Notes: generated by a model not told the origin, from the letters alone. A DNA stretch of 62,195 bases, filler included, from an uncultured bacterium (GCA_964371695.1; 20 parts of 20 records of this genome joined end to end with filler, not necessarily neighbours in it), one strand, 5' to 3'; shown: positions 3,074 through 46,966, counted from the whole stretch's first letter. Translations and numbers: made by a program.

Positions 3074-3173
3074 NNNNNNNNNNNNNNNNNNNNNNNNNNN
3101 NNNNNNNNNNNNNNNNNTTAATTAATTAANNNNNNNNNNNNNNNNNNNNNNNNNNNNNNNNNNNNNNNNNNNN
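3074..3173. other. Artificial contig linker (first of 19)
   Basis: N-run, TTAATTAATTAA (stops in all six frames), N-run. Others start at 6241, 9406, 12565, 15709, 18851, 21993, 25132, 28268, 31354, 34467, 37572, 40672, 43772, 46867, 49960, 53044, 56108 and 59153. Confidence 0.99.
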
Positions 3174-9582: not shown

Positions 9583-9711
9583 GGAGTAGCGGCGGTGCCC
9601 ACACCGCCGCGAAGGGCAAAAACCCTTTGTTTTGCTTTGGTTTGTGCGCGGTGGGGACACCGCGCCTACTCCAAAATGGTTGTGGTGCGACGGGGGCGTC
9701 GCCGCTACTCC
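9583..9711. repeat. Class A REP inverted pair (REPIN-like) plus a third REP
   Basis: GGAGTAGCGGCGGTG..CACCGCCG at 9583, GCGCGGTG..CACCGCGCCTACTCC at 9646-9672, and a further ..GCTACTCC at ~9711. Confidence 0.8.
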
Positions 9712-9733: not shown

Positions 9734-10126
9734 CTACGGCCCGTCCAGCCACAACACGGCGCGGTCGTGGTGGCGAAGTTTTTTGAGCCAGGCCATCAGG
9801 GTTTTGTTTTGGCGGGCCTTGGCGCTGTCGCCCACCACCACGGCCACCACCGGCTCCGAGGGATCCACCGACGCCAGTTTCACCGGCTTCATTATTTTGG
9901 GGAACAGCGTGCCCTGTTCCCGCAGGGCGTCATAGGCCTGTAACACAAAATCATCGGTGGGCGGCGGAGAAAGAGACACCGGCACCGGCTTACCGTCCAC
10001 CGTGGCCACCACCACCGACACATGGGAGGGCATCATCACCGTCAGGGGAGCCAAGTCTTTCATGGTCAGGGTTTTGCCGCTCTGGGGTGGCACAAAAATC
10101 AGAAGCAGTGTGATGACAATGGCCAT
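9734..10126 (-). CDS. Hypothetical exported or membrane-anchored protein
   Basis: 130-aa ORF with AAAGGAG Shine-Dalgarno and a hydrophobic N-terminus. Confidence 0.6.
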   Translation of the reverse strand: MAIVITLLLIFVPPQSGKTLTMKDLAPLTVMMPSHVSVVVATVDGKPVPVSLSPPPTDDFVLQAYDALREQGTLFPKIMKPVKLASVDPSEPVVAVVVGDSAKARQNKTLMAWLKKLRHHDRAVLWLDGP

Positions 10127-10242
10127 GGGTGGCTCCTTTGAGATTTGGGGACAAGGGAAGTGTGCTGAAGTTTATCAACTGCCGGCGCACCTGTTGCTGT
10201 CGGGTTTATGAAAAAGGTTGGGGATTTTCAGGGCTTTTTGAC

Positions 10243-10439
10243 GTAGCCCCGGCGTGCTATCGCCTTCTCGCGGCTGGGTGCCCCAATGGGCACCCAGAAA
10301 GACTCCACTCGAACTGCCGGGGGTTTCAGCCGCGCCACAGGCGCGCACCTTGCCGATTCTTCCCGGTATTCGTCTGAAAAAAGCCTGTTTGGCGCCGCCT
10401 GCGGCGGTTTTTTTGCTCCCGGTGAGATGCCTGGGCTAC
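10243..10439. repeat. Class B REPIN-like element carrying a 60-bp insertion
   Basis: GTAGCCCCGGCGT...GCTCCCGG..GGGCTAC, homologous to 24190-24329 and 28538-28685. Confidence 0.85.
10256..10315 (+). mobile_element. 60-bp hairpin element inserted in a REP
   Basis: 56/60 identical to 37271-37330; absent from the other class B copies. Confidence 0.75.
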
Positions 10440-10494
10440 CGGCAATCTGGCGGCAATGGGCGGCGCACCCGCGTTGGTTTGTTATACTTTTTCC

Positions 10495-18958: not shown

Positions 18959-19089
18959 GGAGTAGGCGCGGTGTCCGCACCGCGCAAAAGCCACTGCAAA
19001 AAGGATTGATTTTTTCATTGACGGCGGTGAGGACACCGCCGCTACTCCGGTTAGGTTAACATCTGTGGATGGGGGCGTCGCCGGTACTC
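18959..19089. repeat. Class A REP inverted pair plus a third REP
   Basis: GGAGTAGGCGCGGTGTCCGCACCGCGC and CGGCGGTGAGGACACCGCCGCTACTCC. Confidence 0.8.
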
Positions 19090-22092: not shown

Positions 22093-22147
22093 TGAATGGT
22101 GCGCGCCTTTGGCGCGGTTGACACTCCCGGCGGGACGCCGGGGCTAC
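22093..22147. repeat. Partial class B REPIN at contig start
   Basis: GGTGCGCGCC..CTCCCGGCGGGACGCCGGGGCTAC. Confidence 0.75.
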
Positions 22148-24189: not shown

Positions 24190-24329
24190 GTAGCCCCGGC
24201 GTCTCGCCGGGGGTTTCAAATGCGCTGAAGGCGCGCACCATACAAATTCTTCCACGTCGTTGCCTGAAAGAAACCTGTTTGGCGTCGCCTGCGGCAGATT
24301 TTTTGCTCCCGGCGGGACGCCGGGGCTAC
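24190..24329. repeat. Class B REPIN-like element (no insertion)
   Basis: GTAGCCCCGGCGTCTCGCCGGGG...CTCCCGGCGGGACGCCGGGGCTAC. Confidence 0.85.
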
Positions 24330-25231: not shown

Positions 25232-25767
25232 CGCCAGCCCAGCAGGGCGTGGCCTATGCCTTTTTGTTTTCCGTCAGCGACACGGACAACCTGAACGTGG
25301 TCATCACGCTGGAGGGCATGCCGCCGCCGGGGCTGAAACTGCAACAGGGCCTTCTCAGCGGCACGCCCCAGAAAAGCGGCGACTACCCCATGGTGGTGAA
25401 CGCCACCGACGGCGCGAACACCGTGAGCACCAGCGTAACCATCTCTGTGGCCCCTGCCCCGCCCCCCAATCTGCCGCCGGTGCTGCTCACACAGTCTTTG
25501 CCCCAGGGTCAGGTGGGTGTGGATTATTCAGCCAGTTTCAGCGCCACCGACCCAGAAAACACCCCCCTTGTTTTTGGCCTGGCGGGAACCTTGCCGTCGG
25601 GGCTTGTGCCCGGCGAAACCCTGCTGGTGGGTGTGCCCAGTCAAAGCGGCCTGTTTGAAATCATCCTCACCGTGAGCGATGGCGTAAACACGGTGCAACA
25701 GCCCTTGTCGCTGGAGATTTTGCCCGCGCCACAAACAGGAGTAGCGGCGGTGTCTCCACCGCCGTGA
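25232..25767 (+). CDS. Putative Ig-domain (He_PIG) repeat surface protein (5' partial)
   Basis: Two repeats of the form LP.G..G..Y...F...D......LP.GL.....L.G.P...G.Y......DG. Confidence 0.8.
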
Positions 25768-28537: not shown

Positions 28538-28685
28538 GTAGCCCCGGCGTCCCGCCGGGAGGGTAAAACGCGCCGCAGGCGCGCACCATTCCGACTTCGT
28601 ATTTCACTGATGGTATTTCACTGAAAAAAACCTGTTTGGTGACGCCTTCGGCGTTTTATTGCTCCCGGCGGGACGCCTGGGCTAC
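28538..28685. repeat. Class B REPIN-like element (no insertion)
   Basis: GTAGCCCCGGCGTCCCGCCGGGA...CTCCCGGCGGGACGCCTGGGCTAC. Confidence 0.85.
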
Positions 28686-37257: not shown

Positions 37258-37404
37258 GGAGTAGCGGCGGGCTATCGCCTTCTCGCGGCTGGGTGCCCCA
37301 ATGGGCGCCCAGAGAGCCTCCGCTCGAACTCCCACCGCCGTAAAAGGCAAAAACTTTTTGATTTTGGAGAGGTTGTTGCGCGGTGCGGACACCGCGCCTA
37401 CTCC
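37258..37404. repeat. Class A REP pair carrying the 60-bp insertion
   Basis: GGAGTAGCGGCGG[60 bp]CCCACCGCCG, then GCGCGGTGCGGACACCGCGCCTACTCC. Confidence 0.85.
37271..37330 (+). mobile_element. 60-bp hairpin element inserted in a REP
   Basis: Near-identical to 10256-10315. Confidence 0.75.
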
Positions 37405-46819: not shown

Positions 46820-46966
46820 ATCCATGAGTTTGCGGGGGTTCTTTCCAGATGCCCATTGGGGCATCTNNNNNNNNNNNNNNNNNNNNNNNNNNNNNNNNNN
46901 NNNNNNNNNNTTAATTAATTAANNNNNNNNNNNNNNNNNNNNNNNNNNNNNNNNNNNNNNNNNNNN

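Follow-up and report, generated by a model that had tools for sequence, protein, structure and literature searches.

A 60-nucleotide gene-less hairpin repeat in the tips of about eleven classes of host hairpin in an uncultured sediment bacterium

Small palindromic repeats nested in other palindromes are known in a few species according to the available text of PMC3733652, where a GTAG or CGTC REP (or a dimer of one) is the insert, each species has one host palindrome, and Thermomicrobium roseum also has hundreds of target palindromes that are empty. How REPs and gene-less hairpin repeats enter new sites is an open question; RAYTs do cleave single strands in vitro and also join them, and the integration of REPs is given only as models in the available portions of PMC3333891 and PMC8266576. 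As described in those portions and in the corresponding ones of PMC3479197, RAYTs act on either side of the hairpin, cutting ssDNA after a C (between C and T or C and A, or between C and C when the tag is GTGG), and can join strands; the C at which cleavage occurs is chosen by pairing with the tag, and the E. coli RAYT needs an irregularity in the stem. Ton-Hoang et al. proposed that trimming of a free 3'-OH before integration creates junction variants (PMC3333891, text available in part). REPs are also targets in their own right. Insertion sequences of five families, with IS1397/ISKpn1, ISPsy8, ISPa11 and ISRm22 among the REP-targeting elements, enter at fixed positions, each in one REP (PMC1525189, in the text available), and the ssr9 A'-B' module of ISPpu9 in Pseudomonas putida enters REPs and has a conserved AG core at both ends (Pares-Guillen 2025, PMC12288879, likewise seen in part).

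In this work we describe a 60-nt repeat (the 60-mer) in one MAG of an uncultured sediment bacterium, a genome of 3.43 Mb in 672 contigs, with 61% G+C and 83% completeness. As in the nesting of PMC3733652, so far as its available text describes it, a palindrome lies between the arms of another palindrome, and the insert is high-copy, intergenic and gene-less. In contrast to that nesting, REPs are here the hosts, and the insert is a tag-less unit of 60 nt, with two helices and a bulge, that occupies approximately 11 host classes and replaces three bases; the same portions of PMC3733652 contain no comparable junction rule. Nesting of palindromic repeats is already known, and what would be new is the many-host, tag-less insert with its three-base swap, a combination that our searches of open-access text did not find. 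The 60-mer shares with REPs an imperfect palindrome, a high copy number and an extragenic location, but it is longer than the usual 20–40-nt REP. Like the insertion sequences that target REPs it uses REP hairpins as landing sites, and one of them, ISRm22, enters at the palindrome axis; unlike the 60-mer, those elements are autonomous, 1–2 kb in length, and mostly make 2–6-bp duplications (PMC1525189, in the portions available). Elements derived from IS200/IS605, for their part, have two subterminal hairpins and a fixed 4–5-nt left motif, whereas the 60-mer has one composite hairpin and a left flank that varies.

The 60-mer family and its predicted fold

The window, by which we mean the whole stretch of 62,195 nucleotides that was analysed, consists of 20 size-ordered contigs (C422–C441) of approximately 3 kb each, joined by linkers of the form N44-TTAATTAATTAA-N44, the first at 3074–3173 and then one per approximately 3.1 kb, and any feature that crosses a linker is an artefact. 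A complete 60-mer lies on the plus strand at 10256–10315 (G000:C425:751-810), where it was found both as a genome match and by the profile search described below. It interrupts a class-B REP that extends over 10243–10322 on the same strand, with GTAG at 10243–10246, the 5' arm CCCCGGC at 10247–10253 and a residual loop GT at 10254–10255 to its left, and the 3' arm GCCGGGG (10316–10322) to its right; the loop bases CYC are absent. A second complete copy, 56/60 identical to the first, lies at 37271–37330 (plus strand; G000:C433:2705-2764) and interrupts a class-A REP at 37261–37340 (plus strand), between GTAG (37261–37264) with the 5' arm CGGCGG (37265–37270) and the right side CCCACCGCCG (37331–37340), with TGTC absent relative to empty copies. 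Both belong to the subfamily that we call V1 and have the same orientation relative to GTAG. The two copies are on separate contigs, C425 and C433, with different unique flanks, and thus do not represent a single misassembled locus. Empty REPs of both classes are also present in the window. The five of class B lie at 24190–24211 (plus strand, loop GTCTC), at 28538–28559 (plus strand, loop GTCCC), and on the minus strand at 22126–22147, 24308–24329 and 28664–28685, and the three of class A at 9586–9609 and 25741–25764 (both plus) and at 19022–19045 (minus); 100 shuffles produced no match to either REP pattern. As regards the two copies, their common orientation relative to GTAG and the presence of empty REPs of both classes, the preliminary description of this DNA was borne out. 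It had further reported a diverged third copy at 46827–46866 on the minus strand; this copy is real and belongs to the second subfamily, V2, with compensatory stem changes as claimed, but it is not diverged; it comprises positions 21–60 of a V2 copy that is cut by the end of contig C436 (its host is a class-8 AAAATC..GATTTT palindrome).

Across the genome, a BLAST-type search returned 41 matches to the 60-mer, and an nhmmer profile built from 44 copies returned, in the whole MAG, 78 matches at E<=1, of which 74 have E<1e-5. These 74 copies comprise 57 that are complete, 14 cut by contig ends and three that are internally truncated. The two subfamilies, V1 (GCTATCGCCTTCTCGCGGCTGGGTGCCCCAATGGGCACCCAGAAAGACTCCGCTCGAACT) and V2 (GCTATCGCCTTTGCTCGGCCAGATGCCCCAATGGGCATCTGGAAAGACTCCTCGCAAACT), are set apart by compensatory stem changes, their differences being nearly confined to paired positions, and the copy on contig C40 is intermediate between them. 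The commonest 59-mer occurs in 11 identical copies, distributed over host classes 9, 10, 11 and A2. The 60-mer is gene-less, and by a crude ORF test it is intergenic, with 67 of the 74 copies outside stop-to-stop high-GC3 ORFs. The depth of the organism in contigs from four metagenome runs of one study is approximately 3–6x, and at such depth bubble-popping or variant collapse by the assembler may have caused the identity between copies to be overstated; the junctions of the 60-mer are unaffected by such collapse. A contig end lies within 150 nt of 24 of the 74 copies, and the 60-mer is consequently one cause of the fragmentation of this MAG, which makes the case a caution to annotators of MAGs assembled from short reads.

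The predicted fold consists of a tail (1–9), a helix P2 (10–18/50–58), a helix P3 (19–28/33–42) closed by the loop CAAT, and a 7-nt bulge (43–49); the hairpin as a whole is an imperfect one of 19 bp, in which P2 and the bulge are followed by the 10-bp P3, with a CT dinucleotide at the 3' end. The single-stranded 5' tail, GCTATCGCC, is present in the 57 complete copies and nearly invariant (positions 1–11). The unit begins GCTATC and ends AAACT, so that CT stands at both 2–3 and 59–60, and GTAG occurs on neither strand of the 57 complete copies. In 32 copies representing 17 distinct sequences, 98% of cells in P3 are paired and four pairs are changed on both sides. P2 has one pair changed on both sides and keeps a 2x2 TC/TC mismatch, whose position in V1 differs from that in V2 by two base pairs. 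The observed covariation was reached in 0 of 500 shuffles, and controls in which the partner was slid were 24–47% paired, versus 87.6% observed. Almost no variation is seen in the loop or at the last four positions, whereas the bulge differs between members of a subfamily, and an invariant tail beside so variable a bulge indicates that a recognition motif is under selection. When five V2 copies in four host classes were folded as ssDNA together with their hosts, the host stem, P2 and P3 were predicted in each, with z of −2.2 to −4.0.

Several copies depart from this plan and are recorded here in their own right. In one copy of each subfamily (G000:C12:176-235 and G000:C538:1709-1768), the P3 loop is inverted from CAAT to ATTG with the stem intact, which is a signature of intrastrand template switching or of hairpin flip-flop. 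At G000:C64:154-182 (minus strand) a 60-mer is split on the P3 loop side by an unrelated element of approximately 100 nt with terminal inverted repeats (AGTTCATTTTGAAG...), a conventional MITE with eight copies in the genome, and at G000:C387:2300-2321 (minus strand) an internally deleted 60-mer runs from its bases 1–20 straight into the host REP's 3' arm. A repeat containing GGAATGTTCATTGG, of which the genome holds 26 copies, often abuts REPs and 60-mers, for example to the right of 1768 on C538 and to the left of 709 on C228. Two partial copies were considered as ends of a longer element and rejected as such: the copy on C162 (positions 1–36) is followed directly by an ordinary gene's 3' end, and the copy on C188 (36–60) lies 64 nt from the contig start. 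None of the profile matches presents a 5' part of the 60-mer followed by a separate 3' part on the same contig. The longer element with the same ends that the preliminary description had suggested looking for did not materialize, as no full-length parent was found in the contigs of the MAG.

Beyond this genome, the 60-mer was found in 0 of 40 other genomes of the same domain. An exact-pattern scan of a collection of genome contigs gave two loci, both chance matches in unrelated sequence; two 60-mer patterns gave 0 and 0 matches in metagenome contigs; and there were 0 matches in viral contigs and 0 by blastn against plasmids. A permissive cmscan of 10100–10450 against Rfam produced five weak matches, all far below threshold and with no meaningful overlap with the 60-mer. 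The metagenome contigs from the four runs contain, for the two-copy contig C8, no joint that skips either 60-mer, although such contigs stop at repeats and cannot show absence. On that contig a separate stretch, G000:C8:14077-14449 (L037), has a summed contig depth of up to 323x and is replaced in metagenome contigs by at least five different fillers of 7–18 nt; it is either another multi-copy element or a variable hotspot.

Host hairpins and the junction rule

All copies with readable flanks lie between the arms of another repeated hairpin, that is, in a hairpin tip. By their flanks 70 of the 74 copies were assigned to 11 host classes (the remaining four are partial or like known classes), and these represent at least seven unrelated junction contexts. 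Among the hosts are two REP families found beside RAYT genes, together with four tag-less palindromes. Class B (GTAG-CCCCGGC/GCCGGGG) is filled nine times, as against 134 empty copies genome-wide, of which 69 have the loop GTCCC and 58 the loop GTCTC, and a second site in the same REP is filled once, in C40. Among the other classes, class A (GTAG-CGGCGG...) has eight filled and 26 empty copies, class A2 13 and 95, class A3 two and 13, class 5 six and 24, and class 11 (AGTGG-GGCGGGC/GCCCGCC) five and 50. The tag-less classes have the centre CC-ATCC-ATGG; class 9 has six filled and 21 empty copies, class 8 six and 36, class 3 two and 16, and class 10 has 12 filled copies. Among the 53 copies with both flanks, 35 have flanks that pair perfectly over at least 5 bp within 8 nt of the junction, versus 10% of 2000 random positions, and 31 have flanks that do so over at least 6 bp, versus 3% of random positions; when the right flanks were shuffled among copies, the mean with a stem of at least 5 bp fell to 14.5 of 53. 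Thirteen of the 18 copies below the 5-bp cut-off have shorter or imperfect host stems, and the right flank of each of the other five (C381, C98, C306, C292 and C538) belongs to another repeat, owing perhaps to a genuine rearrangement or else to an erroneous join in the assembly. The host stems are unrelated in sequence, and stem sequence is immaterial to insertion.

The loop is another matter. On the plus strand of the 60-mer every host loop is C-rich (GTCYC, TCCY, GTCCYC, CCCC or ATCCAT), and in all 11 host classes the plus strand of the 60-mer is on the strand of the C-rich loop. In the tagged REPs, 38 copies have a GT[AG]G tag upstream of them on their own strand, and seven seeming opposites are CCAC inside the right arm of class A. 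Hairpins of the CGTC type (TTCCCGC-GAAA/TTTC-GCGGGAA) contain no 60-mer in any of their 160 copies genome-wide, versus approximately 14% filled for hairpins of the TCC type, and we estimate the chance of 0/160 to be approximately 3e-11. Targeting is therefore directed to a hairpin tip together with a short C-rich loop motif, and not to structure alone. The preliminary description had proposed recognition of REP structure in place of exact sequence, which holds for the host stem and fails for the loop. Relative to neighbouring genes the orientation is random (29 same, 26 opposite), and relative to contig GC skew it is 26/21 (p=0.56), both tests being weak on such short contigs; these results speak, weakly, against a sense-specific role as RNA and give no sign of a replication-strand bias. 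Random orientation to genes and GC skew, together with fixed orientation to the host, argues for a feature of the DNA over one of the transcript.

Empty paralogues, defined as the same 8-nt flanks without the 60-mer in a genome-wide search, exist for 21 of the 41 distinct flank pairs, and comparison with them yields a simple rule, in which the 60-mer replaces three loop bases (four in one class), the last two of those lost being TC or CC in nearly every case. The replaced bases are ATC in 24 of 25 fillers of classes 9 and 10, CCC or CTC in 123 of 127 for the main flank pair of class B, GTC in 71 of 78 for the second class-B site, and CCC, rarely CTC, in class 5; classes A2 and A3 lose CCC or CTC, with a few cases of CAC, TCC, CGC, TTC and TTA, and class A loses TGTC in 16 of the 17 empty paralogues that have these flanks. 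In class 11, C-GTC-CYC becomes C-CA-60-mer-CYC; in class 3, C-ATC-CAT becomes C-CC-60-mer-CAT; and in class 8, TCC-ATC-CAT becomes TCT-60-mer-CAT in one lineage and TCC-60-mer-CAT in the other. The 3' junction is clean, and the 5' junction sometimes has one or two odd bases (CC, T or CA). As we read the host palindromes, one junction is at the dyad axis or next to it. The ends G1 and T60 are identical across the at least seven unrelated contexts, while the last three bases of the left flank take the forms CGT, CGG, CCC, GTC, GCC, TCT, CCA, GTT and GGC. In every host class with empty paralogues, 3–4 nt are replaced with neither target duplication nor terminal inverted repeats, as had been claimed from the copies in the window alone.

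Several schemes of insertion were compared with this arithmetic and set aside. Loss-free insertion anywhere in the loop fails, as no split of the 3-nt filler agrees with how the 60-mer begins and ends. If bases 3–59 were excised and inserted in the manner of a RAYT, with cleavage between C and T, GCT scars would be expected, and none occur among the empty-site fillers, bar one GCTACCGCC remnant. Recombination at a shared core would have left the target's own copy of it in place. A type-IA topoisomerase (C at −4) fits, by our reading, eight of ten target junctions and not the element ends. Last, derivation from a MITE or other DDE element is discounted because the ends are not inverted repeats and 3–4 target bases are lost in place of a duplication.

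The copies bear on whether insertion has happened repeatedly. A class-B REP has been entered at two points, as GT-60-mer-GCC in nine copies and as GGC-60-mer-CCG in C40, which has its own variant of the 60-mer, and class 8 contains two lineages of filled hosts; these are independent events. Filled class-B REPs also occur in both of the larger contexts of that REP, and an identical 60-mer is present in four unrelated host classes. At the same time, all six class-5 copies have GCCTCAATAGGC plus T60C, with the compensatory pair C28T/G33A private to that class, and five class-8 copies have the private bulge GAACCC, from which it follows that composites of host and insert have spread as units. Part of the copy number is plainly due to multiplication of such composites. 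In so far as these sequences can be read, the 60-mer would seem to have moved INDEPENDENTLY of its hosts.

Proposed mechanism and competing explanations

The reading that we prefer, with a probability of about 0.5, is that the 60-mer is a non-autonomous, REP-like single-strand hairpin, mobilized in trans, that enters the tips of other hairpins; the assignment of its mobilization to an enzyme of the RAYT family is a tentative part of this reading. Insertion would take place on folded ssDNA, in one fixed orientation, into the TCC- or CCC-like loop of another hairpin. We infer a nick directly 3' of YC in the host loop, after which three loop bases would be replaced by the 60-mer and the joining would be performed by an enzyme supplied in trans, the likeliest class being an HUH/Y1 (RAYT-like) nuclease-ligase; some host-plus-insert composites would later multiply as larger REPs. 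The single-stranded tail at the 5' foot, the kept irregularity of the stem, the strand specificity and the lack of terminal repeats resemble the features of Y1 HUH substrates. Comparison with REPtrons, as the available portions of PMC3333891, PMC3479197 and PMC8266576 present them, extends this likeness to an imperfect hairpin with a conserved single-stranded motif at its 5' foot and a conserved stem irregularity, to dinucleotides of the form CN on both sides of the hairpin, to strand specificity without inverted repeats or duplications, and to the three RAYT genes of this genome. Unlike a REPtron, the 60-mer has no GTAG and flanks no RAYT, and its ends G1 and T60 are not ends produced by cutting between C and T.

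The three RAYTs, of 148–168 aa, score 79.9–80.8 bits against NCBIfam REP_Tyr_transpos, for which the cut-off is 80, and are the sole HUH enzymes detected in the MAG. Downstream of the RAYT on C53 lies an inverted pair of class-B REPs, of which one is filled, an arrangement that is not above chance (rough estimate ~0.09). A search with the C53 protein gave 663 proteins at E<=1e-10, the nearest of them 58% identical to it. The RAYT on C29 has class-11 REPs upstream, and the REPs beside the one on C11 are of a third, GGCGCAGGC type; none of the three is flanked by 60-mers as such. Upstream of the C29 gene (G000:C29:3776-3990, minus strand) three degenerate 5' halves of its REP (TTTAGTGGGGCG...) stand in tandem ahead of one complete REP, and downstream of it (G000:C29:3100-3268) there are long alternating runs of G and C that are probably low-quality assembly. 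In this 83%-complete MAG no matches were found to TnpB (PF07282) or reverse transcriptase (PF00078); the search for IS91 Y2 (PF04986) gave no match and is uninformative, since its control matched nowhere. Matches to GIY-YIG comprise UvrC and one small ORF (G000:C176:5814-6029; L040:1501-1716), the flanks of which are CGTC-type palindromes, CGTCATTCCCGC-GAAA-GCGGGAAT..., and not 60-mers. The earlier view of the 60-mer as a non-autonomous inserted element stands as regards an inserted, gene-less unit that is constant between unrelated arms; no dedicated enzyme was found in the MAG.

Action by a RAYT would be consistent with a nick after YC, with a precise junction on the protein-linked side and with loss on the side of the free 3' end; the proposal of 3'-OH trimming likewise fits a clean right junction, which would be the protein-linked side, and a left junction that loses approximately 3 nt and sometimes gains odd bases. 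Against it, an exact loss of 3 nt is odd for random trimming by a nuclease, and the invariance of G1 is unexplained. Furthermore, one enzyme would need to use the hosts of several RAYTs or of none, when each RAYT would be expected to prefer its own REP. Against the preferred reading as a whole it must be said that, in this one MAG, no event was caught in progress and neither a full-length parent nor a dedicated enzyme was found. The location of the insert can be read and its enzyme cannot, and the 60-mer is thus a record of where repeats land and not of what moves them. It is possible, although we hold this only tentatively, that the reaction is a previously undescribed one on ssDNA, in which a RAYT working beyond its own REP, or a nuclease-ligase that was not assembled, would recognize the tip of any folded hairpin with a TCC-type loop, cut after YC and swap three loop bases for a tagged hairpin of 60 nt.

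The strongest competing explanation dispenses with dedicated mobility, and supposes that rare template switching or microhomology-directed copying between hairpin tips, in replication or repair, was followed by RAYT amplification of the loaded REPs, to which nearly all copies would be due. Inversion of a loop is a classic mark of template switching in quasi-palindromes, and both C12 and C538 have one. The private variants of class 5 and of one class-8 lineage, 8(i), are what spreading composites would leave, the shared centre CC-ATC-CATGG of classes 3, 8, 9 and 10 offers short homologies that could steer a transfer, and donor flank could be the source of the odd bases (CC, T, CA) at the left junction. 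Copying of this kind would, however, be expected to leave ragged ends, and G1 and T60 are uniform in at least seven contexts; nor does it readily account for an identical 60-mer in four unrelated host classes, for the recurrence of the same junction in class-B REPs of two larger contexts, or for the combination of an invariant tail and a variable bulge, which points to selection. The empty 160 hairpins with GAAA/TTTC loops and the fixed strand would not be expected from replication errors alone. We consider this explanation to be a serious minority view, about half as probable as the preferred reading of a hairpin mobilized in trans.

It is improbable that a cellular function keeps the 60-mer in multiple copies, whether as a structured RNA or as a protein-binding DNA module, and that its copy number is not a matter of selfish spread. 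Some E. coli BIMEs carry an IHF-binding linker, which provides an analogy for the latter, and the compensatory changes that preserve both helices, the conserved tail and loop, and the intergenic position of 67 of 74 copies by the crude ORF test are all features that a functional module might present. A function would nevertheless give no reason for the nesting of all copies in the tips of other repeats, and the lack of an Rfam match at 10100–10450, the random orientation to flanking genes (29/26) and the failure to find the 60-mer beyond this genome in the collections searched all speak against it.

The least probable explanation, by a small step below a cellular function, is akin to the IS621 precedent that the preliminary description had cited, namely that the 60-mer is a mini-derivative of an IS110/IS1111 element consisting of ends only and moved in trans by a DEDD recombinase guided by a bridge or seek RNA, after the manner of the ISPpu9 ssr9 A'-B' module. 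That module also lacks a transposase, has defined short ends (the end boxes of ISPpu9 are 43 + 16 bp), circularizes, and lands in REPs with its enzyme encoded elsewhere (PMC12288879, in the text available), the IS110 family as a whole lacks inverted repeats and long duplications and several of its elements target REPs (PMC1525189, likewise), and CT at 2–3 and 59–60 is readable as a repeated core. The analogy fails on junction arithmetic, as a CT core would need a target-derived G1 and no empty loop reads GCT among the empty paralogues of 21 of 41 flank pairs, and core-based recombination keeps all target bases where three are here lost; in addition, the hosts share no 11–14-nt target sequence, and DEDD_Tnp_IS110 (PF01548) and Transposase_20 (PF02371) gave 0 matches each, in an 83%-complete MAG in which a multi-copy IS may be unassembled. 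ISPpu9 itself differs, in the portions of PMC12288879 available, in using one conserved REP position, where the 60-mer has unrelated hosts, keeps no core and loses three bases, with no IS110 gene found.

Implications for the entry of hairpin repeats

The genome of this bacterium constitutes a natural data set on the entry of repeats into new sites, with one constant insert, approximately 11 kinds of hairpin, hundreds of empty paralogues and 160 hairpins that were never filled. The rule that describes the junctions is a simple one (the tip, the C-rich loop strand, three bases replaced and a clean 3' side), and it enables oligonucleotide assays with the three RAYTs. If the reaction is indeed an undescribed one on ssDNA, the 60-mer would provide dozens of before-and-after sites for REP-like integration, a step that has never been directly observed.
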